Shown: piece by piece, positions 23,814-39,173 of the stretch | How positions within the stretch are numbered: position 1 is the stretch's first letter | Layout of the letters: each line of letters opens with the position of its first letter | Source of the DNA: Candidatus Heimdallarchaeota archaeon | GTDB lineage: Archaea; Asgardarchaeota; Heimdallarchaeia; Heimdallarchaeales; Kariarchaeaceae | Assembly (NCBI GenBank): GCA_030149205.1 | Contig: JASBSB010000007.1 | Coordinates: forward strand, 422,473-486,472 | Direction: 5' to 3' | Length of the DNA: 64,000 nucleotides | Program-made: the position numbers and the translations under genes | Notes under the pieces: generated by a model | Database searches by the model: none | What the model was told of the DNA's origin: nothing | What the model saw: only the letters and a program-made list of their open reading frames with translations

Positions 23814-26800
23814 ATGAAAGATAACACCCCAACTAAAGTAATTTTTATTTCTCTGCTGTTCATGGCATTGCTAACAACAAATGTGTTTGCAAATGCCAGT
23901 CTCAGTACGAATATTACAGATCAAGTTAAGGTGTCTATGCAACAGGGAATGCATTACTACACCTACGACTCAAATAAAGTGGTCATATTTTATGACTATA
24001 AGGAGTCGTTGGCTGTTAGCACAGCAAAATCCTTGACTAGCTCTTTGAATCTCTTTACGCCGAATGCGATAGGAATTCCAATTGGTAGTCTTGATGTAAT
24101 AGAACCTATTCTGATGAAAAACAACTACAAAGCCGCAATTTTAGTTTTTCCCTCTTCCCCTTCGGGGATGAAAATTACCTCCCTTAGTGGATCGGTAAGT
24201 GAATACAGCTGGAAGACGGTCGCAAAATTCATAGAAAATAAAAGAGATCAGTTCAAAGGAACCAACTTTATTTTTGCTATGGGTAACACAATGCAGCTTG
24301 TCTCTCATATCTCAAATGTAGAGCGAATCTATGCTTCAAACGAGGAAGCTGTAGAGTCAGAACATATCTATGTTTACACGTTGTGGACTTTGGCAGATAT
24401 CTTTGAATCCGATGATGATGCACAATACAGGGCATTAGGTAAGGATCTAAGAAAAGCTACCCTCAAATATTTTGCTAACAATTTCAACAGGATTGCAGCC
24501 AGTAGCATATCTCCTCAGAATCCAATGGGGAAGGAATCAGATGCAACTGTTGAGGCTCGTAAAAAGAAGTTTTTTGATGACCATCAACCGGTGGTAGTAA
24601 AACAGGCTAGACCAGGATATATAATTGACCCCAAAACAAATCGAGAGGTGGATCCCGCAACAGGAAAACCCACCACTGATTATGGGATCGATATCTTTCC
24701 ACAAAACACTAGCACAGTAACAGATTTTATTTTGCAGCTCTTGCCGATTGGCAGTGGCTTAAGGGGGCCAGTAGGGGGAATAGTTGACAATCTTCTCTCT
24801 TATCTTTTCAATGAAATTGGAGGGGCCATCGGGCTTTCTAATGACACAGTCACACAGATATTCGATGTGATTACTCAGATCCCAGATCTTATTGCATCAT
24901 TCTCAAACCCCTCTGCAAGTGCCATAAAGGCATTGGTGGAAAAACTAAAACCTATGCTTCCAATTGGTGAAGAATTTTATCCATACATAAATCTCTTTAT
25001 CGATGGTCTCTTTCTCTTAAGAGGGAGCAAGGATGATATTGTTAATTTTATTCAACAGGCAGTCAGTCTATTAATCCCTGATTCGCTCTCAATTGGTTCA
25101 ATTAGTGTCAAGGCTCTTCTAAGCCAACTTACGACATTAGGAGCATCAGTTTTTGATAAAATCCAACAGGGAGGAAATGTATTAGATATCATATTTAGTG
25201 TTCTAAACGAACAGATTGTGGCTAATCTAACTGCTACAGTGATGGGAAATGGGACCGTATTTGGGTTATCTGCCCCAGAACTCACTAAGTTTATAAACAA
25301 GACAACAACAACAATTAATTTTGTTATCCAATACTTGTCATCAAAAAGTCTAAAAGACCTTGCATTTGAATATGGTGACAAATTGTTACGTTTTGCCTTC
25401 TCAGAATTTGGGTTGAGTGAAAACACCTCTGAAACCATTATTCTATCGTTAACCACCGTTTTAACTGCGATGGGTGTGATTAATGATCCAGATGTAAATC
25501 TTGAGAATCAAATAACTGAGATTCTTAAGCGTGTAACAAATTTGAATATTGACCTAATTAAAGAAAAGGCTAAGGATATACTTAAAGTAATCAGTGATGC
25601 GTCTGAGGGTAAATTTACCTCAATTTCAAATTTAAACACCAATCTTCAGCCTATTCTTGATACATTAGGTATTTCTACCAATATCAAAAACAGTCTTCGC
25701 GATTTGATTGAAATAATTGCTACTATCTCCAGCTCAAATCTCTCGTTTAGCTCTGTGAAGAAAGTTTCTTTAATGATCGCAGATTTTGCAACAAGCTTGG
25801 GATTAAACTCCCAATACAAAACCTTTGTAGGGCAGTTATTTGAGTCATTAACCAGGATCATTAACTTTGTCAAAAACCCACCAAAGCTTTCAGACCTCCT
25901 TAATCTCAATTTTGGAGGAGTCATTGACATTTATCATGAAATTAAAAACCTGTTTGATCTGGTTGTAAACTTTGTTAAAGGTGTTTTGCCGCCTGCTCCA
26001 ACCACTACCAATTCTGTATCACCTCAGGCAACCGGTCTGAGTAATTTAGCAAACAATCTCTTTGCAAACGCTTCAGAAATAATTGGTGTTGTATTTCAAG
26101 TTGTAAACTCTGTTCAGGGCAATTCTATGGAAGGCGTTATGCTCGCCCTTCTTCAAAGTTCAACTCAAATCTTGGGGAGCTTCCTCCCAGTTGATAATAT
26201 TCAACCAATTGTTGAGGTAACAAAGTATCTCTTCAGCACAATTGCTGGATTGAACACCACCATCTCAGTTGACCAGTTGATCAGTCAGATTCTTCCCCTA
26301 TTTCCATCTAGCTTACAATCAGGGGTCAAAACAGTCCTTGATATTATCTTTAGTATTAAGGATGTATTCACTAATGGACTTCAGACGTTAATAAACAGGT
26401 TATTGGAATGGATTTCTGGGAAGATATTTGGGCTAATTGATCAGCTACTTGGAGCGCTGAACCCCTCAGTTGATTCTTCAGGCATATCGATAAATTTTGA
26501 TGTGCCAATAGGGATCGGCAGTTTCTCACTGTTTACCATGAAGTTTCGGCTAGGTTTATCCTTTGGCTTTGAATTTGATAACGACGCCTTTGCCACCTTT
26601 ATTTCCGATATCATCTTTCGAGGGGCAAAGGTATTACAAGGGTTAGATGTTGGAGGTGTCTTCAAAAAACTTTTCAGCTTTATGTCTATCACACCAATCT
26701 TTGAAGCTGGATTTGAGTTAAGCACCTTTGGTTCTGGATCTCAAAGCTTCCTGAACTACATGCTAGCAGCACTTGGAGTTGAGCTTAACTTTTCTGGGGA

Positions 26801-29800
26801 AGGCTGGTTTAAACTCTTGCTTTTCAGCTTTAAAAATGGAGTATTCTCTCTGGATAACTTCTTTAAGGTGATTGAATGGGGCTTTAAGTTCACAATTGGA
26901 ATAAGCCGCACATTTACATTACTTGATTTTCTAACTGGTGGGGCCGGAGGAAGCCTAAATTCAATTGGACAATATATAGGTCTTGATGCAATTTCAATAA
27001 CGATTGCCTTTATTTTGACCCTCTCTATTGTGAAACGAGCAGCGACGGCGAACAAACCTGAGACTGGATCCATGACAATAACAATTGGAATAAACTTTAC
27101 AGTTTCACTAGGAATAGATATAACCATCGCGAGACTTCTCCTAAAGGGAACGTTAGAGGTGACCCTGACCCTACTACAGGATCTGGTGGCTCCGACACCG
27201 CTTCAGGTGTACATTGCGATTCAACTCGTGATTACTGTCACAATAGGTTTCCTGTTCTTCAACTGGAACTTTGATTTCAAATGGTCACCAGATGGTTTTG
27301 CACCGCCCTTGGGTAAGAATATCTCAGGAAACTCACCACAAGATGCTGTTAAGAAAGGGGCACTTGGTGGTGACACAGACAATGATGGTCTCTCAGATCA
27401 GTATGAAAACAGTACCTCTGGTCTTAAATTTAACAGCCCTGACAGTGATGGGGATGGATTAACAGATAAATTTGAGACACAGACATTAAAAACAGACCCA
27501 TCTAAAAAGGATACAGATGGTGATGGTTTGGATGACAATGTTGAATATTCACTCAAGACCAATCCATTAAAGGCTGATAGTGACTATGACCAGGTGTCTG
27601 ACTATAAAGAAACCACAATTTATGGAACTAACCCATTGTCTGCTGATACAGACCAAGATGGTTTGGATGATTACTATGAGATTAATCATGCTTGGAATAT
27701 AACTGGTGTTACTACCTCAGTTTCACAGATAAAAATTGGTGGAAAGTTCTATGATGATCATACAGATCCACTCAACCCAGATACGGATGGAGATGGGTTG
27801 CTTGACGGTCAAGAAGGTGAAAGAGGTGTCTATTACGGACCTCAGCTCACTGGAACAGCCAAAGATTATGGATACACCCCAGACCCACCATTGATTTTTA
27901 ATGGTGGATACACTCATCCACTGGATAATGACACAGATGATGATTCATATTGGCAGCTTTATGATGGCTCTATAGCCCCTGTTAGTTCTCCCTATATAAT
28001 GAACCTAAATGATTATGTGGAGACCCATGGGCTTGAGGTTGTACTTATAGATCCTCTTACTGGTGAACCTGAGGCTCCTAGATTAATAAGGACCAATCCA
28101 GTTAATCCAGATTCCGATGGTGACACAGGTGTAACAGCCTCACAAAGGAAAGTTCCTCCACCAGGGTTCTTCTTAAACTCTGATGGATATGAACTCGGTA
28201 TTGCACACACAGATCCACTAAATGGAGACACAGATCAGGACGGATTAATTGATGGTTTAGAAGGTATTCTTAGACCAGATTCTAACCACACAGATCCATT
28301 AAATCCTGACACAGATGGAGATGGGCTGGGTGACATGCAGGAAACACTCCTGGGGTTAAACCCAAGAGGTATAGATACAGATCATGATGGGGTAACAGAC
28401 AGTGATGAGTTCTTCAAATATGGAACAAACCCCTTCCTTAATGATACAGACTTTGATGGATTGGAAGACGGAGAAGAACTCTTCTTATATCACTCAAATC
28501 CCTTCATGTCTGACAGTGATGCCGATGGTCTCTCTGATTATGCAGAAGTCTGGAAATATTTCTCATCTCCTTCAGACGAGGACTCAGATAATGATGGACT
28601 CACAGATTATGAGGAAGTGATGATACATTATACAGACCCCTTTGTAGCAGACACCGATGGTGATGGACTTCTCGATGGTGATGAGGTTTTAGGGCTTCCA
28701 TTTACAGATTCATTGAACCGAACACACCTTGTCTTTACAGACCCAACTAAATGGGATACAGATGGTGATTCTTTGACAACCTTGGATCAGTATGGCAAAA
28801 TGAGTATGCCAATGTCCGATGGACAAGAATTTGCAATGGGTACAGACCCATCAAGACGAGATACTGATCTGGATGGAATTGAAGACGGATGGGAACTTTG
28901 GTTAGGAAAAGGTATAATCCCTGGAATGGATCCAATTAAGCTTGATCCACTAAATAATGATACAGATGGTGATGACCTCCTTGATGGGCAAGAAGTTGCT
29001 ATAATGAATATGAGTACACTTCTTAACCCCTACATAGGATTTACACTTGTCCGACCGTACAACACCTCAGCCACAAACCCAGATACAGACGGTGATCAAA
29101 TCCCTGATCATGTGGAACTGTTAAATGGAACCCGTCCAGATAATCCCGACAGTGACAACGATACATTGACAGATTATGAGGAAATTAATGTCTACAAGAC
29201 GGATCCAACACGAAATGACACAGATGGAGATGGACTGCTGGATCAAGAAGAGGTATTTGGATATCAGTTCCCCTCAAACACCAGTTCAGCTATCACCCTC
29301 CATGCATTGATAAGAACCGACGCTAACAATCCAGACAGTGACTTTGATCTGTTACCTGATGGGGCAGAGGTACATTTCTATAACACAGACCCAAGAAATG
29401 GGGATGTCAATGGAAATGGTATTGTTGATGGTATGGAAATTGATACAGACGGTGACGGACTCTATGATGGAGAAGAATTTATGGTCTACAAGACTGTTCA
29501 ATCACCTGATGGAGGTGGTGTACTTAACCCAGACTCAGATCATGATGGTCTCTTTGATGGGTTTGAAGTGTACCAAACCCTGACTAATGCATCTCGCTGG
29601 GACTCAGATAACGATACATATTCCGATGGACTTGAATTCTATTGTAACACAAACCCATTAGATAATTCAACAACACAATCAGAGATCAATGCCTGCTTTA
29701 CTGGGTTGGATAAGGTTGTAATTCTCTCACCAGCTCCAACAAAATATAGAACAAATAGTATACCTGTCATTGTATTTGATGCAACCAAGAATATGACAGC

Positions 29801-30440
29801 TATGTCTTACCAGTTCAGAGCTCATAATGGCACATGGAGTGGATCAGTTCCTATGACCCCCTCTGTTGGTAAACCTGGACAATGGGAAGGAGCTGCATTA
29901 GGCATCCCACTCAAAAATGGAACTTATGAAGTTAAAGTTACAATACAAAGACCTGATGGGACAACCTTTGAAAGGAAAAGACTTTTCTCCTTGTTACTTG
30001 GACCCACTTTAATTCAGGTACAAACCCCTGAGTCAAGGAGGTATGACTTCAACGAGTTTACCACTCCTTCTCTTCCAATAAAGGTAAAGGCTGGGTTGGA
30101 TTTCAATTCCACCTGGTATCGTATGAGAATGGAGAATGGGACAATTATGAAGGATAACACCACCCTTCAGTATGACTCAGGTCTTAGTGCCTACTATCAG
30201 GACAAATTCGAATTTCCAAAGTTACGTGGGACACACAATTACACCATTGAGGTTTTCGGGATGAAGACCAATGGACAGGTGTATGTCTCAGTGGTGAACT
30301 TTCAAATCAAAACCCCCACCATCATTGAAAATGTGGCTATTGTGGGTACAGGTGTTGCAGCAACCATAGGTGTAGGTGGTGGAACCATAATAGGTGTGAG
30401 AAAGGGCATCTTCAAGAATCCTTTCAAAAAGAGGAGTTAA
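23814..30440 (+). CDS. Giant (2208 aa) secreted surface protein: signal peptide, ~1100-aa novel Leu/Ile-rich helical N-domain, ~26 thrombospondin type-3 Ca2+-binding repeats, beta-sandwich domains, C-terminal TM anchor
   Basis: Signal peptide MKDNTPTKVIFISLLFMALLTTNVFANA. Tandem D.D.DG..D..E units (NPDTDGDGLLDGQE, SDSDADGLSDYAE, NDTDGDGLLDQEE, ...) from roughly aa 1150 to 1850. C-terminal Gly-rich TM 'VAIVGTGVAATIGVGGGTIIGV' plus basic tail KKRS. Confidence 0.8.
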   Translation: MKDNTPTKVIFISLLFMALLTTNVFANASLSTNITDQVKVSMQQGMHYYTYDSNKVVIFYDYKESLAVSTAKSLTSSLNLFTPNAIGIPIGSLDVIEPILMKNNYKAAILVFPSSPSGMKITSLSGSVSEYSWKTVAKFIENKRDQFKGTNFIFAMGNTMQLVSHISNVERIYASNEEAVESEHIYVYTLWTLADIFESDDDAQYRALGKDLRKATLKYFANNFNRIAASSISPQNPMGKESDATVEARKKKFFDDHQPVVVKQARPGYIIDPKTNREVDPATGKPTTDYGIDIFPQNTSTVTDFILQLLPIGSGLRGPVGGIVDNLLSYLFNEIGGAIGLSNDTVTQIFDVITQIPDLIASFSNPSASAIKALVEKLKPMLPIGEEFYPYINLFIDGLFLLRGSKDDIVNFIQQAVSLLIPDSLSIGSISVKALLSQLTTLGASVFDKIQQGGNVLDIIFSVLNEQIVANLTATVMGNGTVFGLSAPELTKFINKTTTTINFVIQYLSSKSLKDLAFEYGDKLLRFAFSEFGLSENTSETIILSLTTVLTAMGVINDPDVNLENQITEILKRVTNLNIDLIKEKAKDILKVISDASEGKFTSISNLNTNLQPILDTLGISTNIKNSLRDLIEIIATISSSNLSFSSVKKVSLMIADFATSLGLNSQYKTFVGQLFESLTRIINFVKNPPKLSDLLNLNFGGVIDIYHEIKNLFDLVVNFVKGVLPPAPTTTNSVSPQATGLSNLANNLFANASEIIGVVFQVVNSVQGNSMEGVMLALLQSSTQILGSFLPVDNIQPIVEVTKYLFSTIAGLNTTISVDQLISQILPLFPSSLQSGVKTVLDIIFSIKDVFTNGLQTLINRLLEWISGKIFGLIDQLLGALNPSVDSSGISINFDVPIGIGSFSLFTMKFRLGLSFGFEFDNDAFATFISDIIFRGAKVLQGLDVGGVFKKLFSFMSITPIFEAGFELSTFGSGSQSFLNYMLAALGVELNFSGEGWFKLLLFSFKNGVFSLDNFFKVIEWGFKFTIGISRTFTLLDFLTGGAGGSLNSIGQYIGLDAISITIAFILTLSIVKRAATANKPETGSMTITIGINFTVSLGIDITIARLLLKGTLEVTLTLLQDLVAPTPLQVYIAIQLVITVTIGFLFFNWNFDFKWSPDGFAPPLGKNISGNSPQDAVKKGALGGDTDNDGLSDQYENSTSGLKFNSPDSDGDGLTDKFETQTLKTDPSKKDTDGDGLDDNVEYSLKTNPLKADSDYDQVSDYKETTIYGTNPLSADTDQDGLDDYYEINHAWNITGVTTSVSQIKIGGKFYDDHTDPLNPDTDGDGLLDGQEGERGVYYGPQLTGTAKDYGYTPDPPLIFNGGYTHPLDNDTDDDSYWQLYDGSIAPVSSPYIMNLNDYVETHGLEVVLIDPLTGEPEAPRLIRTNPVNPDSDGDTGVTASQRKVPPPGFFLNSDGYELGIAHTDPLNGDTDQDGLIDGLEGILRPDSNHTDPLNPDTDGDGLGDMQETLLGLNPRGIDTDHDGVTDSDEFFKYGTNPFLNDTDFDGLEDGEELFLYHSNPFMSDSDADGLSDYAEVWKYFSSPSDEDSDNDGLTDYEEVMIHYTDPFVADTDGDGLLDGDEVLGLPFTDSLNRTHLVFTDPTKWDTDGDSLTTLDQYGKMSMPMSDGQEFAMGTDPSRRDTDLDGIEDGWELWLGKGIIPGMDPIKLDPLNNDTDGDDLLDGQEVAIMNMSTLLNPYIGFTLVRPYNTSATNPDTDGDQIPDHVELLNGTRPDNPDSDNDTLTDYEEINVYKTDPTRNDTDGDGLLDQEEVFGYQFPSNTSSAITLHALIRTDANNPDSDFDLLPDGAEVHFYNTDPRNGDVNGNGIVDGMEIDTDGDGLYDGEEFMVYKTVQSPDGGGVLNPDSDHDGLFDGFEVYQTLTNASRWDSDNDTYSDGLEFYCNTNPLDNSTTQSEINACFTGLDKVVILSPAPTKYRTNSIPVIVFDATKNMTAMSYQFRAHNGTWSGSVPMTPSVGKPGQWEGAALGIPLKNGTYEVKVTIQRPDGTTFERKRLFSLLLGPTLIQVQTPESRRYDFNEFTTPSLPIKVKAGLDFNSTWYRMRMENGTIMKDNTTLQYDSGLSAYYQDKFEFPKLRGTHNYTIEVFGMKTNGQVYVSVVNFQIKTPTIIENVAIVGTGVAATIGVGGGTIIGVRKGIFKNPFKKRS

Positions 30441-33400
30441 GTGATTAAAATGAAGAAATTTACAATTTCAATACTTTCTGTTATCTTGCTTCTTATGCTG
30501 GTCTCTAACCCATTGGTAAGCATCCATGGATTGAGCAGCTCAGATGTAACCTCAAAACCAGAACTTACTCCTTTGAAGGACTGGAAAGATGGCATAGTGA
30601 AGGATAACGGGACAAACCTAAATCCAAACGGAGTCTACGATCAAAACACAGATCTTGGAAAATTTCTGTCAGATCAGAAATCGACATTTGATAAAAAATG
30701 GGATCCATGGCTCACTCAAGGTGCAGTTCATGCTGTGGCATCAACTGCTGACGGAGACATGATGGCAATAGCAACTGGATATCTCTATGATAACCAGATA
30801 CATGTGTACAGATACAACCACAAAACACTGCAATATGATCACGTATGGGAAGTAGGCGGTGGAGTGTTTCAGTCTGATGTATTTACATTGGATTTTGCAG
30901 ACACAGACTACAACAATCTTACTGAGATAATTGCCGGTGGAAATGACGGAAGAATCTATGTGTTTGAGCAAAGGCATCTTTATGATCCAGTTACAAATAT
31001 GGAAAACATGTTTGATCTGGTTTGGACAAGCCCTCGTCTTGGAAGAATCTTTAGTGTGACTGTGGACGACACAGATATGGACTTCCGGAAAGATATTGTG
31101 ATTGGAACTGGTGATACAGTCAGATGGTATGAATATGATAACCACTCCAACTATCCCTTCACAAAGGATCACTGGATGACATTCAGAGAGGTAAGCACCT
31201 TTAAAGCAAACTCACAGATTACCGCCTTAGGTGTGTCTGATGTAAACAGCAACGGGTTGAAAGAGGTTGCAGTGGGTCAAAAGTCTGGAGAGATTCAACT
31301 GCTTGAGAATGCTGGGGTTGTAATCCCCATCAACGGGAAAAAATTCCCCTATTATCAAGATAACACCTATAGACAAATCTGGAGCTCGAATAACACCCTT
31401 AGAAGAGGTATAAGCTCTATGAGTGGTGGAGACCTGGATAATGATGGGTATCGAGAACTCTTGATTGCAGTTCAAGGTCAAGGAGCCTATGTTCTTGATC
31501 AATTAGACGGGCAGCTTGGCACATACAGAATCGAAAGACCATTTGCACCATGGGAATCCAACATGACTGCGTTTTATTCATTGGATTACTATATAGACTC
31601 AATGGTCAACTCATCTAGCATGTTCAATGGAACGTGGCTACCACTTGCCTCTGCTAATGTGTATTACAAGAACATTACAAACAGCTATCAGGAGCCATTC
31701 AACATAAGTAAATATGTCTATGATAACTATCCCTACAACTCAGAGACTGTCAGAGTTCCTGATAATAAATACACAACCTTGGATGGAACCAAGGTTCCAG
31801 GAAAAGCAGCATGGGCAGTTTATGATTTTGGGCATGATGAAGAGGCAGCTGGTAATGGCGTGCCTACTCAGTATGACCTATCAATACTTCTGCACTCTAC
31901 AAGCACAGCAGTTAATCCAACAGATATTGAGATCTCAATTTCGGCAGATAATGTAAACTTTCACAAGATTGATTCTAAGTACATTAAGTTTAACTCAAGC
32001 GTTCCATTGAATACTTACTACCGTGCATTCAATGTTGAGGTTGATCCAACCCTGATAAATGCATCTTTGGATTATTACAGATATATTAACATCACGGTGT
32101 TTAGTAAAAAACTGGTCATAGATTCAATGAAGACCCTCTCAATAAATAACCCGATTTATGATGCACAATCAACAGAGGTTGGTCCTCTTCTCTTCAAGGG
32201 AGAGACTGTCGCAGAGAAGGCAGGGTTTATTGGAACAATTGACGGTACAATCTTGGCCGTTACCTGGAACCCAACCATGAAACGATACACAATTTCATGG
32301 GACAGTTGGGTAAATGAAAGATTTAAGCTGAAGAAAAACATCTTTGATATGGAGCTGGTTCATAAGTCTGGTAGATTCCCATCTATCATCGGAAACAAGT
32401 TCCTTGCTTCGATTGCTGATTTTACATCTGGGTTAATCAATCCTTTCAATGGCTTCACAGAGAAAGTAGTGTCCTATTCTGCAGAAAACTTCTATAACTA
32501 TCAACAGGAGCCTCGAGCAGAGTTTGTTATCTCAACTGATAGCGGGAGATTATTAATTTACAGACAGCAGGCAGATAACTCACCTCTGGTTTTAGATAAA
32601 GCCCTGTCTAAGCAAATGTTTGACACACCCATGGTGTATTCAAGTAAACTTGCAAACAATTTGACAACGGTGATGCAATACATAAATCAGAGGAAGGCTC
32701 TAGCTAATGGACCAAAATATTTTACGGTTTCATTCGTTCCGTTAGAAAATGGTATTATGGATGGATTTCTTGGAACCCAATTAAACATAATCAACACACC
32801 GTTTTTGATGCTCTTAGGTGAATGGACTGGTTCATTAGGTGATCTACAAGCACAATTGACAGGAGTCCCTGATTCACCCGTTCAAAATAATGATCTGACC
32901 ATGTGGTATGTATACAACTTCCCATTAGGGAACGCTGCCTGTGATCCAGCATTAGAACAATGTACAACCGTTGTACCTTATATGAATGACCGTACAAATG
33001 CGCCTTACAGTCTGAAGGACTTGGATCTGACTGGACAAATGCTTGGATATTTCAGACAATCCAGTTGGATGCCAAAAATTGCTGGCGGTGATTTTATTGG
33101 CTCCTCTTCGAAAGATCTCGTTCTAACAAATGGAAAATTGATGCTGTTGGAGGTAAGTTATTCGGCAGACCCGAATTATATTCCCACTAAACCCAAAAAT
33201 CAATTCGTAGCTGGGCCATCAGTTTGGGGATCGTTTAGCCCCACAAGTCAGATTATCTACACAGCTAACCCCTCCTATTTCTCACAAATCAATGAGATGT
33301 CTAATGGAAGGCAATGGACGAATCCATATCCAGTGGACTTTGATAATGATGGTGATCTTGATCTTATTCTTAGCTTTGCAAGGTATGATACAACCACGTT

Positions 33401-36400
33401 CACAGTTGATCTGAAGAAGTACGGAATGACATATTTCGAGAACGCAGGAACCCGAAACAATCCAATCTGGATTGAAAGGAAGAAGGCTGTGACAAACAAT
33501 GACCCAGATTCAAATCTTAGAGTTAACTTGTACACAGATCCAGTTTTCATTAACGATAACTATGATCTAAAGTTTGGGTATTATCCTACAGTTGGATACC
33601 ATCCTTACTTTAAGACAGGTTTACCTTCCAGATTGGTCATGTTCAATCTCCCAAGCATCTCTGCCGGAGTGTTTGACGGAAAGTTAAACTCCTTCAAGCT
33701 TAATTATGAACCTGGAACCTCACTGATGGTGGCAACCTACCCAGAGACAAAAAGACTTGATATAAATCTCATGGACTATAATATGGGGTTGCTTGGGCAG
33801 ACTAACTTTGGGTACCATATCTTTGAAAGTTGGAACAATGGTCGAGAGCTAAATAACTGGACTCTCTCCCTCAGTACAGCAGATATGGATCAAGATGGAA
33901 AGAATGAGGTAATTGTTGGTGATTTTAACAACAATGCGTATGTATTTGAACATCTCACAAACAACACCTACAAGAGAGCCTACAAGACACCTGATATCAA
34001 TCGAACAGTGGTCACAGATCAAAGTCCATATGCCAGTAACCTATTTACGGGTATTAGTGGAAACTTTAACAGGACAATCTTTAACCACGCAACATTTACG
34101 ATGGCAGGGGTAGACTTAAACAATAACACACTCCAAGAATTCATCATTGCAACTGACTCTGTCTTGTATGTATTTGAATCCTATCTTACAAGAGCAGGAA
34201 GGATAAGGGATGACTCATACAGGTTAATCGCACAGATTGATCTTTATTCCCTTCCAGCCCTCTCAAGGATGGATCGTAGCTTGATCAAGGTCAGCTCACT
34301 GACATGGGCAAACGACATCACCAATGATGGCAACAGAGAATTAGTTGTCGCTGTTGGTCCCGCATTGTTAATTTTTGATATTCAATCACTTAATCATGAC
34401 ACAAGCCTTGCCTTTGTAAAACAGGTGTTTATGAATAGATTAGACTCAAATCTGTTCAACTGGAATGAAATTTTCTTCAAAGACACCTACAATGCCACCG
34501 GAAAGTACAACATGCCAGGAAACTACCTGATATCATTGAATCAGGTAATCTCTTCAGTCCTTGTTGAAGACATCAACAAGAATGGAAAGATGAATATAGT
34601 CATTGCAGGAAAAGATCTTGATACAGCTAAGCCTATAAGGGACGGCTTCATCAGAATCTATGAATGGACTGGTGTGAACTTTGATCAGATTATTGCTCCT
34701 GAGGTGTTTAAAAAGACAACCCAGTTCAATATGATTACTGATCTAGAGACAGATGACGCAGACCATGATGGTTTAACAGAACTAATAATTGGACATCAAA
34801 ATGGAATTGATATCTATGAGGTTACGGGTAGTAACACAGTTGAATATCGTGAGACAATCACCTCGAACCCTCATTATCAAGTGCCAAAGCATAATTATCT
34901 AGGTTTGGGAAGAACTCCCACCACATTCACAAACGCAAAGGATGTAGTGCTACTTTCCAATGGGACTCTATTGATGGCATATGTTGTACAAGTGACCAAA
35001 GGAAACTTTGAGATAAGGGTTGCAGGATCAAACGATGATGGAGCAACTTGGATCCAATATGGTGCAATAACCTATTCTGGAACAGCATCTGCGAGCTATC
35101 CTGGTGCTTTGGTTGCAATCGAAAGTATAGACCTATTGATCAAAGGTGGATTATTGTGGTTATCTTTTGCGGAAAGACGCAGTGACACACCTACTACCGA
35201 TGTGGCTGTGTTTTACGTAATTAGAAACCTACAGTTCAAAACATCAAACACCGCATACTTTGTTAGTGCAACCTCAGTAACACGAAACAGTGAGCAATCT
35301 GCCTCACCACAAATGTTTAACTTTCCAAATGCATCTACTACAGAGGTTGGGTTTGTTTACTTTAACTTCCAAAACTCAAGCTTATGGTTCTTAAGAGCAG
35401 ATACAGCCTATGCAGGGATTTTTGGAACATACTTTTCCGCAAGCACAAGAGTCCTATGGGCTAACGGGTCAGTTTTAGGGGAAAAATTCCTTGTTCACTC
35501 ACTCAGCGTCTATGATCAACCTAGAGGAAACTCACTCGATTTCGCATTTGCTGGATACCCCCGAAACGAATCCCTCTCACTTGCAGTGAACCTGTACTAT
35601 GTGTCTGTGGATATATTTCGAGCTTCTAGCTGGATGTTTAACTTTACAAAACAACCAACCAAGGTGTTACAGGGTAACCTGCCAATTAAGTTCCCATCTA
35701 TTATTCGAATGCAGGATACTGGGGCATTACTCATCTCCTTTGAGCAGCTATCCCTGAAGCCATTTGGTGGACTTTATGCTGCTTGGTCAAATGATCTTGG
35801 AACCTCATGGAATGGACCATATTCTATGACTCATCCTTATGGTTTGGATCTCCCTCTACTCACAGCATTACCGACCCCATCCAAAGAATCCTACAGAGTT
35901 GGAACATATGATGGCAGAATCATGCTTGATTTCTTTGATGTCAGAAGACCTGTCCTTGTACCTACAAAAGGAAGTGGATTTACTCAAGTTTATAATGTGT
36001 ACTTCACCACAAACCTGAGGAGAGAGGGTTCTATTGGGTATTGTGCTTCTTACACCTTCAATTTTGGGGATATTGCACAAACCATCTCTGGCACCTGTGA
36101 TCCATACTCAGGCACTTCCAGGGTTTTGGCTTCTTTCCACAATCCGTGGAGTAACTTCACCACGTATTCCCTGAGAGGAGTTACTGATCTTACAGTTGGG
36201 GACACAGATAATGATGGTAGACATGAGATACTTGCACTTAGCGGAAATCAGGCATATCTGTATGAATTTGCACACAACAGTAAGACATTCATTAGACATG
36301 TTGAGACCTGGATATCTGATCCATATGATCAGCAACTACGTAAAGGTGCAATCTCAGATGCAAACGGAAATGGTATCCCTGAAATTATTCTCGAAACAGC

Positions 36401-39173
36401 AAGGGGTGTTGTAAACTCTTTTGAGTTGGTCAAAGCCAACAAAGAGGCACCAAATCTGAAGTATCCAATACTTGACGCCACAATCTCTACAACCGCAGGG
36501 ATGAATAATTTAGTTCGTGAGATAATCCCAGTGGATGTAAACGCTGATGGTGTGGATGATATACTTTACAACACTCAGAATGGTGAACTAGTTGCAATTA
36601 ACGGTAAGGACAACACACTCATCTATAATGTGTTAAGTCCTTCACTGCCTCTAAGGTCAACGAGTCATGCAATATTTAACGATGTGAATCTTGTCCTTAT
36701 CTCTCACAAGGCGACAGGAAAGGCAGAATTTGTTGTTATGCCATATAACAACCTTCTGTATATCTACAAGTTGGATGGAACCTATGTGGGGTCCAAGATA
36801 CTTGGTATCAATGGAACAGACTTCATTTCAGGGATACAGGCGATAAACTTAGATAACTCAGGTTTTGATGAGCTCGTTGTATCTGTCTCAAACGGAACAA
36901 TCGTTGCCTATGATATGTCAAATCTTGTGGTTAGATTCTCTGTTCCCAGCAGTAAAAGCTTCATCACAAATGAATACATTGAGACCTTTAGAGTTGCCCA
37001 CTATCTGAGTAATTCCAGCTTCAGTCTTGTAACAGTAACCAACAATGGTTTCTTTGAGATGTTTGACCTCACAACATTAACGTCTGTCTGGACAAAGCAA
37101 ACAGCTGTCTCATTTGGTCGTATGGATGTGTCAACCTCTACCGACTGGAATGTCCTAAATGTGGGAGATTTCAATGGTGATGGGTTAGATGATTTGGCAG
37201 GAGGTCTTAATACCACAATCGTCCTCAAAGGTTCCAACGGTGACCAGCTCTGGAACCAAACTAACTCAAATCAAGTAATTCAAAGTGAGGCAATTGTTGA
37301 GGACATTAACGGAGATGGTATCGTCGATTTTATCATCACCTATTACTCCTCTTTAACACCAAACGCTTTGATAATGAAAGCTGTCTCTGGATTAACAGGT
37401 ACTGTGCTTTGGTCTTACCAACTTAAAGATCAGGCTGGACTCGTGATTCCAGAATCATTTGTCTCATCTTTACTTGCCCCTGGTAAGAGGTTAATAACCG
37501 CTGGACTGTATGCCTTCGATTCCTATGGCTTAGTGAGTTCTGCAGAAACTGGACAGGTGATGCTTGGAGTCAAGAACCCCATTTCTCTGCTCAGTTCTGC
37601 ACTTCTGGAGAAAGGTCAAGCAGAGCCAAAATTTGTCACTGGTGATCTCAATGGGACAGTCAGAATATACTCAATCTATGATGGTACCCCACCAGTCAAC
37701 CGTGTAAAAACACCTCAGCTTCAAAAAACACCATTCATCAGAGTGGGTTCTGATTTCACAGAGCGAACCAAATTCTTTGTACAGGATGTTTTTGGAGGAG
37801 ATGGGATTGATGACATATTTGTGGTCGATGATAATTACATTGGTGGTGCAGATACAAACAGACTCCTCAATGACCCAAGCTATAACACAGTTGAATGGTC
37901 TAAGGATCTCAAATTCAGTGGGAAGCTGTTAACTGCCATTCACGGTGACTTCAACAAGGATGGGAAAGCTGAAATTGTGGTAGCATTTGAAAATTACTGG
38001 ATGTCCGTTGATATGAGAACTGGCTCAGTTCTCTGGAACAAAACACTTCCAATCAGCTCTGGGAATATTGCACTCTCAATGTCTTTACAGAATGCATCTC
38101 TCAACAAAAACTTGCCAGGAACCCAAATTGCATTCTCTCTGGTTGAGAAAAACCCAACCTCAGGAGACAACATTACCTCCTTTGGGTATATTAACCCTGC
38201 TACAGGTGATCTATTGGATCTGTACTTCTTCACTGATTTCAAGAACCCCTCATTCACACTGGTTGATATTGACAAAGATGGATACGCTGAGTTTGTTGGA
38301 GCAATCAACCATCAGACAAACCCACTGGTAAACCGATATGTCATTTACCAGATTGACCAGGTAACTGGAAAGTTCATCATCATCAAAGATGCATACGTAA
38401 CAGGATATCCTCCCATCAGTCAAGTCATTGGTGGTGAGTTTGATCTGAGTAACACCAAAAGAGAGTTCACATTCGTTTTTGACTACTCTAGAATCAAAAT
38501 TCCATTCCCAATGTATGATTTCTCAAGAGTTCCATCCATCATGTTTACTCTCACAGCAGACCTGACCACCAAGGTGCTTCAGGCAACCAACAACACCATT
38601 GGTGTGGCACCCTTTGGTGGTGAAGCCCGACGCTATATGCTGACTGATTACAACAAGGATGGACTTAATGAGGTTATCATTCAGACCGGATTTGGAGACC
38701 TTTATCAGATACAATATGGCAATTCTGGAATTTACATCAAAACTGGTGGAAAAATTGCAAGTGTGGCAGTGCCCTACGCAGAGACACCTTTCCTTGTTGG
38801 AAATTTCTTTGCTGGTGTATCCAATGCAATGGCTGTGGTCATAAGTAGCGATGCAATGTCTCTCTATGATAATGCGAAACTTGACCCAACTGCAACGCCA
38901 AAGGGAAGTGTGGTATTAGCGATTGACACTATTCAGGATATCATCCCTGGGCACTATGACAAAGATACTATTACCGATATAATGGTGATCAGTAAGGCTG
39001 GATATGTGTGGGTGGTAAACTCAGTTAACCTCAGTCCACTTCAGCTAAACGAAAAAGGCATAGTAAAACCTGAACAGCAAAGCACAGTAACAGACAGAGT
39101 TGAAGTCATACCTGGGTTAATGCTTACTATCTTTGTGATGATCATTATCCTGAGAAGAAAAAAGAAGAACTAG
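30441..39173 (+). CDS. Giant (2910 aa) secreted integrin-alpha-like protein: more than a dozen FG-GAP/VCBS beta-propeller repeats plus a BNR (sialidase-like) propeller and a C-terminal TM anchor
   Basis: Signal peptide. Recurring 'D.N.DG..E/D..(I/V)G' FG-GAP Ca-loop motifs (DLDNDGYRELLIAV, DFDNDGDLDLILSF, DMDQDGKNEVIVGDF, DTDNDGRHEILAL, DVNADGVDDILYN, DFNGDGLDDLAGG, DINGDGIVDFIIT, DFNKDGKAEIVVAF, DIDKDGYAEFVGA, DYNKDGLNEVIIQ). BNR motifs 'SNDDGATWIQ' and 'SNDLGTSWNG'. C-terminal 'IPGLMLTIFVMIIIL-RRKKKN'. Track start is GTG at 30441; ATG at 30450 (MKKFT) is more likely. Abuts the upstream stop codon. Confidence 0.8.
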   Translation: MIKMKKFTISILSVILLLMLVSNPLVSIHGLSSSDVTSKPELTPLKDWKDGIVKDNGTNLNPNGVYDQNTDLGKFLSDQKSTFDKKWDPWLTQGAVHAVASTADGDMMAIATGYLYDNQIHVYRYNHKTLQYDHVWEVGGGVFQSDVFTLDFADTDYNNLTEIIAGGNDGRIYVFEQRHLYDPVTNMENMFDLVWTSPRLGRIFSVTVDDTDMDFRKDIVIGTGDTVRWYEYDNHSNYPFTKDHWMTFREVSTFKANSQITALGVSDVNSNGLKEVAVGQKSGEIQLLENAGVVIPINGKKFPYYQDNTYRQIWSSNNTLRRGISSMSGGDLDNDGYRELLIAVQGQGAYVLDQLDGQLGTYRIERPFAPWESNMTAFYSLDYYIDSMVNSSSMFNGTWLPLASANVYYKNITNSYQEPFNISKYVYDNYPYNSETVRVPDNKYTTLDGTKVPGKAAWAVYDFGHDEEAAGNGVPTQYDLSILLHSTSTAVNPTDIEISISADNVNFHKIDSKYIKFNSSVPLNTYYRAFNVEVDPTLINASLDYYRYINITVFSKKLVIDSMKTLSINNPIYDAQSTEVGPLLFKGETVAEKAGFIGTIDGTILAVTWNPTMKRYTISWDSWVNERFKLKKNIFDMELVHKSGRFPSIIGNKFLASIADFTSGLINPFNGFTEKVVSYSAENFYNYQQEPRAEFVISTDSGRLLIYRQQADNSPLVLDKALSKQMFDTPMVYSSKLANNLTTVMQYINQRKALANGPKYFTVSFVPLENGIMDGFLGTQLNIINTPFLMLLGEWTGSLGDLQAQLTGVPDSPVQNNDLTMWYVYNFPLGNAACDPALEQCTTVVPYMNDRTNAPYSLKDLDLTGQMLGYFRQSSWMPKIAGGDFIGSSSKDLVLTNGKLMLLEVSYSADPNYIPTKPKNQFVAGPSVWGSFSPTSQIIYTANPSYFSQINEMSNGRQWTNPYPVDFDNDGDLDLILSFARYDTTTFTVDLKKYGMTYFENAGTRNNPIWIERKKAVTNNDPDSNLRVNLYTDPVFINDNYDLKFGYYPTVGYHPYFKTGLPSRLVMFNLPSISAGVFDGKLNSFKLNYEPGTSLMVATYPETKRLDINLMDYNMGLLGQTNFGYHIFESWNNGRELNNWTLSLSTADMDQDGKNEVIVGDFNNNAYVFEHLTNNTYKRAYKTPDINRTVVTDQSPYASNLFTGISGNFNRTIFNHATFTMAGVDLNNNTLQEFIIATDSVLYVFESYLTRAGRIRDDSYRLIAQIDLYSLPALSRMDRSLIKVSSLTWANDITNDGNRELVVAVGPALLIFDIQSLNHDTSLAFVKQVFMNRLDSNLFNWNEIFFKDTYNATGKYNMPGNYLISLNQVISSVLVEDINKNGKMNIVIAGKDLDTAKPIRDGFIRIYEWTGVNFDQIIAPEVFKKTTQFNMITDLETDDADHDGLTELIIGHQNGIDIYEVTGSNTVEYRETITSNPHYQVPKHNYLGLGRTPTTFTNAKDVVLLSNGTLLMAYVVQVTKGNFEIRVAGSNDDGATWIQYGAITYSGTASASYPGALVAIESIDLLIKGGLLWLSFAERRSDTPTTDVAVFYVIRNLQFKTSNTAYFVSATSVTRNSEQSASPQMFNFPNASTTEVGFVYFNFQNSSLWFLRADTAYAGIFGTYFSASTRVLWANGSVLGEKFLVHSLSVYDQPRGNSLDFAFAGYPRNESLSLAVNLYYVSVDIFRASSWMFNFTKQPTKVLQGNLPIKFPSIIRMQDTGALLISFEQLSLKPFGGLYAAWSNDLGTSWNGPYSMTHPYGLDLPLLTALPTPSKESYRVGTYDGRIMLDFFDVRRPVLVPTKGSGFTQVYNVYFTTNLRREGSIGYCASYTFNFGDIAQTISGTCDPYSGTSRVLASFHNPWSNFTTYSLRGVTDLTVGDTDNDGRHEILALSGNQAYLYEFAHNSKTFIRHVETWISDPYDQQLRKGAISDANGNGIPEIILETARGVVNSFELVKANKEAPNLKYPILDATISTTAGMNNLVREIIPVDVNADGVDDILYNTQNGELVAINGKDNTLIYNVLSPSLPLRSTSHAIFNDVNLVLISHKATGKAEFVVMPYNNLLYIYKLDGTYVGSKILGINGTDFISGIQAINLDNSGFDELVVSVSNGTIVAYDMSNLVVRFSVPSSKSFITNEYIETFRVAHYLSNSSFSLVTVTNNGFFEMFDLTTLTSVWTKQTAVSFGRMDVSTSTDWNVLNVGDFNGDGLDDLAGGLNTTIVLKGSNGDQLWNQTNSNQVIQSEAIVEDINGDGIVDFIITYYSSLTPNALIMKAVSGLTGTVLWSYQLKDQAGLVIPESFVSSLLAPGKRLITAGLYAFDSYGLVSSAETGQVMLGVKNPISLLSSALLEKGQAEPKFVTGDLNGTVRIYSIYDGTPPVNRVKTPQLQKTPFIRVGSDFTERTKFFVQDVFGGDGIDDIFVVDDNYIGGADTNRLLNDPSYNTVEWSKDLKFSGKLLTAIHGDFNKDGKAEIVVAFENYWMSVDMRTGSVLWNKTLPISSGNIALSMSLQNASLNKNLPGTQIAFSLVEKNPTSGDNITSFGYINPATGDLLDLYFFTDFKNPSFTLVDIDKDGYAEFVGAINHQTNPLVNRYVIYQIDQVTGKFIIIKDAYVTGYPPISQVIGGEFDLSNTKREFTFVFDYSRIKIPFPMYDFSRVPSIMFTLTADLTTKVLQATNNTIGVAPFGGEARRYMLTDYNKDGLNEVIIQTGFGDLYQIQYGNSGIYIKTGGKIASVAVPYAETPFLVGNFFAGVSNAMAVVISSDAMSLYDNAKLDPTATPKGSVVLAIDTIQDIIPGHYDKDTITDIMVISKAGYVWVVNSVNLSPLQLNEKGIVKPEQQSTVTDRVEVIPGLMLTIFVMIIILRRKKKN

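Follow-up and report, generated by a model that had tools for sequence, protein, structure and literature searches.

A lineage-restricted, previously uncharacterised family of paired giant surface proteins was recognised in Asgard archaea, mostly of the Heimdall group. The representative described here lies in a 64,000-nt stretch of DNA (the window), in which an ATG-initiated ORF on the + strand (23814..30440) encodes a 2208-aa protein with a dense array of thrombospondin type-3 (TSP3) units. The family of this TSP3 protein is genetically locked to an integrin-alpha-like FG-GAP giant, as observed in adjacency, fusion and size co-variation. The ORF was borne out as a genuine gene, and a chance ORF was ruled out by its length and by an architecture kept in relatives at 20-50 % identity. 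The combination of its N-terminal part with a dense TSP3 array, which had drawn attention in a first-pass annotation, was confirmed as unusual.

Architecture of the TSP3 protein and its locus

The features of the locus were as follows.

23814..23894, + strand: signal peptide (aa 1-27; n-region KDNTPTK, h-region VIFISLLFMALLTTNVF, c-region ANA followed by S), read from the sequence
23976..24593, + strand: N-terminal alpha/beta domain, flavodoxin/CheY-like three-layer sandwich without Cys (about aa 55-260)
24768..26306, + strand: helical repeat region, four units of about 140 aa (aa 319-831; AF2, hhalign)
26307..26474, + strand: long amphipathic helix of 56 aa leading into the sheet (aa 832-887; AF2 helix H832-887)
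26484..27284, + strand: ten-strand amphipathic antiparallel sheet, strands of 8-20 aa (aa 891-1157; AF2)
27372..29639, + strand: fixed-geometry TSP3 (DxDxDGxxD) region with conserved inserts (Pfam, motif count)
29640..30332, + strand: beta-rich, membrane-proximal region (aa 1943-2173), without a match in Pfam or among PDB sequences
30333..30440, + strand: C-terminal TM anchor (aa 2174-2195), short basic cytoplasmic tail RKGIFKNPFKKRS and stop codon (Kyte-Doolittle)
30441..39173, + strand: partner gene, 2910-aa FG-GAP/beta-propeller giant with signal peptide and C-terminal TM anchor (Pfam)

The N-terminal hydrophobic segment (Kyte-Doolittle peak at aa 7-28) was found in all complete relatives, and the signal peptide would be cleaved after ANA. 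At the opposite end, the TM anchor gave a Kyte-Doolittle peak at aa 2174-2193, and the complete relatives also carried a C-terminal hydrophobic segment with a basic tail. The tail motif FK[NS]PFKK was common to the query protein and the relatives L003 and L004 and was not kept in the Hodarchaeota relatives, while the membrane-proximal region was kept in L003 (56 %) and L004 (41 %). The sequence thus read predicts a secreted type I membrane protein, C-terminally anchored, which is probably N-glycosylated. Two Cys were counted in the 2208 aa.

TSP3_bac was the sole Pfam match on the whole protein (PF18884, E 4.4e-34, its 116.4 bits exceeding the gathering threshold of 25). The 26-unit array claimed earlier was recovered between aa 1187 and 1938, consisting of 23 units of the canonical motif [DN]x[DN]x[DN]xxx[DN] and 3 degenerate DxDxD units (aa 1373, 1433 and 1648). 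Canonical units numbered 22-25 across the family, short variants included, in which the spacing series 23, 23, 22, 23, 45, ~46, ~60, ~38, ~28, then 22, 23, 23, 21, 25 and so on was kept as well as in the rest of the family. Because unit number and spacing are conserved, the TSP3 region is regarded as a fixed module. The Cys pair at aa 1944/1961, which closes the region, was conserved in the close clade only. From their motif, the TSP3 units would bind Ca2+.

The N-terminal 1186 residues

Searches of Pfam, NCBIfam and PDB sequences left aa 1-1186 without an assignable motif or known family, in agreement with the first-pass annotation. The ~1100-aa N-domain proposed there is a composite of four parts and not one domain: behind the signal peptide, an alpha/beta domain is followed by helical repeats, then by a long helix and finally by a beta sheet. 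The periodicity of its hydrophobic stretches is beta and not helical. The AF2 model was built with a 57-sequence alignment (pLDDT 81.2); the arrangement of the domains in it is uncertain because pTM was only 0.53. The fold matches of the alpha/beta domain were flavodoxin, CheY and CHAT, and VWA/beta-I was not among them.

The helical region rich in Leu, Ile, Ser and Asn that had been described from the letters was supported by the composition of aa 251-900 (L 12.9, I 10.9, S 9.7 and N 7.1 %), by a helical hydrophobic-moment periodicity over about aa 280-880, and by the AF2 secondary structure, with ~28 helices in aa 319-887, long helix included. When the helical region was compared with itself by hhalign, a match was obtained at an offset of ~140 aa (Prob 93 %, E 3e-7). 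The helical repeat region is a variable spacer: the short members P0041, P0046, P0064 and P0068 lack it, and P0013 carries an expanded form. The long helix displayed a hydrophobic stripe with 3-4 residue spacing, conserved in 40-46 sequences, and its C-terminal half was kept in the short variants.

One face of the ten-strand sheet was lipophilic, and the opposite face was polar and Gly-rich. Together with aa 301-330, the sheet was among the best-conserved stretches within the N-terminal 1186 aa. A dyad pattern was conserved in all ten strands, the alternate face being charged and Gly-rich, and it persisted in variants without the helical region. The two hydrophobic stretches ISITIAFILTLSIV (aa 1060-1073) and VYIAIQLVITVTIGFLFF (aa 1132-1149), formerly suspected to be TM or amphipathic helices, do exist, with Kyte-Doolittle peaks of 2.2 and 2.1 respectively, but they are strands 6 and 9 of the sheet in the AF2 model. 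That they form alpha-helices of a multi-pass or helical pore-forming protein is hardly credible and this candidate was rejected. The peaks of 2.1-2.2 over 19 residues speak for it, but it needs helices of ~20 uncharged residues, whereas hydrophobicity over aa 880-1160 followed a beta periodicity (about 170 degrees) and not an alpha one (100 degrees), and the long strands in which AF2 placed the two stretches had a pLDDT of about 85-93. Moreover, alternate positions of the stretches were polar and about 31 % charged family-wide, and the orthologous Hodarchaeota segments, which read LFIVGISFDFSMEIILTFF and LQIFLEIILRFSVTLTFLF, contain D/E/R inside the stretches. A buried beta-sandwich, named in the first-pass annotation as the contrary outcome, was right as to strands instead of helices and wrong as to their kind, since the strands are one-sided amphipathic, unlike a two-sided buried sandwich core. 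In the model, the lipophilic face may be buried by helices as an ordinary core, line a cavity, or be exposed. The suggested membrane-interacting module may survive in another form, as a sheet with an entirely lipophilic face.

Pore-forming toxins, viral fusogens, tape-measure proteins and SNARE-like bundles, all raised earlier as possible relatives, gave no fold match. The best result of the BFVD structure search was E 1.6e-2 at prob 0.2, tape-measure matches had prob <= 0.11, and no tape-measure, fusogen or SNARE-like fold was among the PDB matches listed. By analogy of shape, the closest counterparts of the sheet appear to be lipid-facing sheets, i.e. outer-membrane barrel walls and those of large lipid transfer proteins. 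Like the walls of BtuB, FimD, BamA, PgaA and the autotransporter translocators NalP, Hbp and EspP, the sheet is a meander of amphipathic antiparallel strands whose dyad is of the lipid-facing kind; because identity is only 4-12 %, this likeness is a shape analogy and not demonstrated homology. In contrast to these barrels, the sheet is internal rather than C-terminal, and it is probably open rather than closed. To our knowledge, the host organism has no outer membrane or BAM machinery. In Foldseek against PDB, members of the large lipid transfer protein superfamily took ranks 1-4, 7 and 8, with E 6.3e-4 to 8e-2, a prob of up to 0.89 and alignments of about 700-900 columns. MTP, lipovitellin/vitellogenin and ApoB beta-alpha1 share with the query a helical array followed by large amphipathic sheets, but the N-terminal domain of the query is flavodoxin-like and not a Vitellogenin_N-type barrel; the Vitellogenin_N model of Pfam matched neither the query nor any of 38 family members searched at E <= 10.

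Pairing with the FG-GAP giant and family distribution

The partner gene starts directly 3' of the stop codon of the TSP3 gene, and its product matched FG-GAP_3 (E 2.5e-34), FG-GAP (E 2.3e-16) and Beta-prop_BBS7 (45.9 bits) in Pfam. An FG-GAP gene adjoined the TSP3 gene in all 16 related loci examined (the window and 15 further), with a gap of 0-85 nt or a 4-nt overlap, and the gene order was inverted in one lineage. In two independent assemblies (P0010 and P0091) the pair was fused in frame, in a topologically consistent succession of TM, basic loop and TM. The sizes of the subunits co-varied: short TSP3 variants of 1510, 1612 and 1524 aa were paired with FG-GAP proteins of 1797, 1516 and 1790 aa, and the partners of long variants had 2617-3254 aa. 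From this genomic evidence we infer a physical heteromer of the two proteins. With cytoplasmic tails as short as 13 and 6 aa, transmembrane signalling is unlikely. The genomic neighbours of the pair resembled housekeeping genes.

Exhaustive HMMER search of 1.84 billion proteins returned 87 clusters of the N-terminal family at 50 % identity, a word-index search of 5.8 billion proteins gave 3 matches, and the family was located in 17 genome loci. Apart from one 1.6-kb contig, probably mis-binned, all named members were Asgard, mostly of the Heimdall group (Heimdall-, Kari- and Hodarchaeota), which argues against a common archaeal surface domain. Members were annotated as “hypothetical protein” in their sources, and their overall length was near-constant (about 2050-2290 aa), short variants apart. 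The Asgard surface-protein literature searched offered little beyond recently reported S-layer proteins, and the family was absent from it.

Candidate function and comparison with known systems

On balance, it is somewhat probable that the TSP3 protein and its partner make up a conserved two-subunit complex for Ca2+-dependent contact at the cell surface, in which the TSP3 protein is the subunit with the lipophilic head. Proceeding outward, the short basic tail and one TM helix would be followed by the beta-rich membrane-proximal region, the TSP3 stalk and the distal head. The stalk would act as a roughly 750-aa “wire” of 26 Ca2+-binding units, rigid, of defined length and not expandable. In the head, as modelled, the ten-strand sheet would be gripped by the long amphipathic helix, and beyond them a spacer of four ~140-aa helical repeats would carry the flavodoxin-like domain at the tip. 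The FG-GAP partner would be anchored in the same membrane, probably alongside the TSP3 protein as a heteromer. Most likely the complex would function in Ca2+-dependent contact or adhesion between the cell surface and other cells or surfaces, and the lipophilic sheet-plus-helix unit would serve as structural core of the head or as pocket for a hydrophobic ligand. Adhesion, like any lipid contact, is put forward here as an interpretation, and proteins with TSP3 or FG-GAP repeats are assigned to it generically.

A structural envelope element would be just as compatible with the evolutionarily fixed geometry of the stalk and with the low copy number. In this rather unlikely case, the pair would form a fixed-height canopy or spacer layer, with the lipophilic face as ligand-free fold core or oligomerisation interface. 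The evolutionarily fixed number and spacing of TSP3 units, the near-constant overall length (about 2050-2290 aa), the co-varying subunit sizes and the housekeeping-like neighbours fit it; on the other hand, S-layer proteins of cultured Hodarchaeales are, by description, conserved homotetramers with a central pore, which would not resemble the query. The structural alternative overlaps the preferred contact complex, from which it differs solely in the absence of ligand binding. It is unlikely that the head is a lipid-binding or transfer device, in which helical repeats and sheet enclose a cavity for lipids or hydrophobic molecules, similar to MTP, vitellogenin, ApoB or helix-grip/TULIP domains, and which the stalk displays for uptake from or exchange with partner cells. 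This proposal draws on the top Foldseek ranks with their same order of helical array and amphipathic sheet, on the conserved lipophilic face of the long strands, and on the conserved amphipathic helix directly before the sheet, kept in short variants. A Ca2+-dependent intercellular contact device of integrin-alpha-like propeller and stalked subunit, in which the distal half-barrel of the latter binds lipid by its lipophilic face or enters the membrane of a syntrophic partner for tethering and possibly lipid exchange, is quite unlikely. Distinctly improbable is a membrane-inserting head (pore, fusogen or second-membrane anchor), in which the sheet, alone or as oligomer, would close into a beta-barrel, shielded by the helical region until contact, and would enter a target or partner membrane with its lipophilic face.

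Asgard archaea are the archaeal lineage closest to eukaryotes, and the way in which their cells make contact with partners and surfaces has a central place in syntrophy-based models of eukaryogenesis. Elsewhere, large sheets with a single lipophilic face are typically those of membrane barrels and lipid carriers. Should lipid or a foreign membrane indeed be contacted by the head, the pair would represent a new kind of archaeal surface machinery and the first described archaeal lipid-facing beta-sheet machine, an analogue and not necessarily an ancestor of eukaryotic adhesion and lipid-transfer systems; if it does not, a well-delimited new surface-protein module is still gained. The family and the pair offer testable targets in newly cultured Hodarchaeales.

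The long Asp-rich run of type-3 Ca2+ motifs (26 in the query) was comparable in density to that of thrombospondin and COMP, as had been stated beforehand, and a Cys pair ends the run in the query's clade. Differently from those secreted matrix proteins, the query is membrane-anchored and matched the bacterial TSP3 model only. The TSP_C lectin-like domain and EGF repeats were not found by Pfam in the whole protein or its C-terminal 288 aa, and no coiled-coil oligomerisation domain was identified.

The pair also resembles integrin alpha/beta: both partners are short-tailed type I membrane proteins, of which one bears FG-GAP propellers and the other an alpha/beta head domain that is carried by a stalk of small repeats, and there are Ca2+ motifs and, in the query's clade, an NPF-containing tail. 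However, the stalk consists of TSP3 units and not EGF, sequence similarity to integrin beta is lacking, and by eye no DxSxS MIDAS motif could be seen. The set of features that defines integrin beta (VWA/beta-I head with MIDAS, Cys-rich EGF stalk, NPxY/F tail) was not recovered in the query. According to the accounts given in PMC9258230 and PMC9197732, Liu et al. 2021 described “integrin repeat” proteins from Asgard archaea.

Dense DxDxDGxxD units with a ~23-aa period at the cell surface are common to the query and to Myxococcus CglD (gliding-motility adhesin complex) and MtsC/MtsD (cell-cell cohesion). The NCBIfam model of CglD matched aa 1425-1695 (E 9e-58), and MtsD and MtsC matched more weakly; all three missed their equivalog cut-offs (195.9 vs 400, 55.4 vs 800 and 37.8 vs 350 bits, respectively), and the matches were confined to the TSP3 region. 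Unlike these proteins, the query has an archaeal host and lacks a VWA domain as well as a lipoprotein or MYXO-CTERM anchor, and its 1186-aa head without counterpart, fixed repeats and obligatory FG-GAP partner are its own. By analogy, a role in Ca2+-dependent adhesion is likely to be common to the query and the myxobacterial TSP3 proteins. The similarity of the TSP3 region to CglD, MtsC and MtsD was counted in favour of contact or adhesion.

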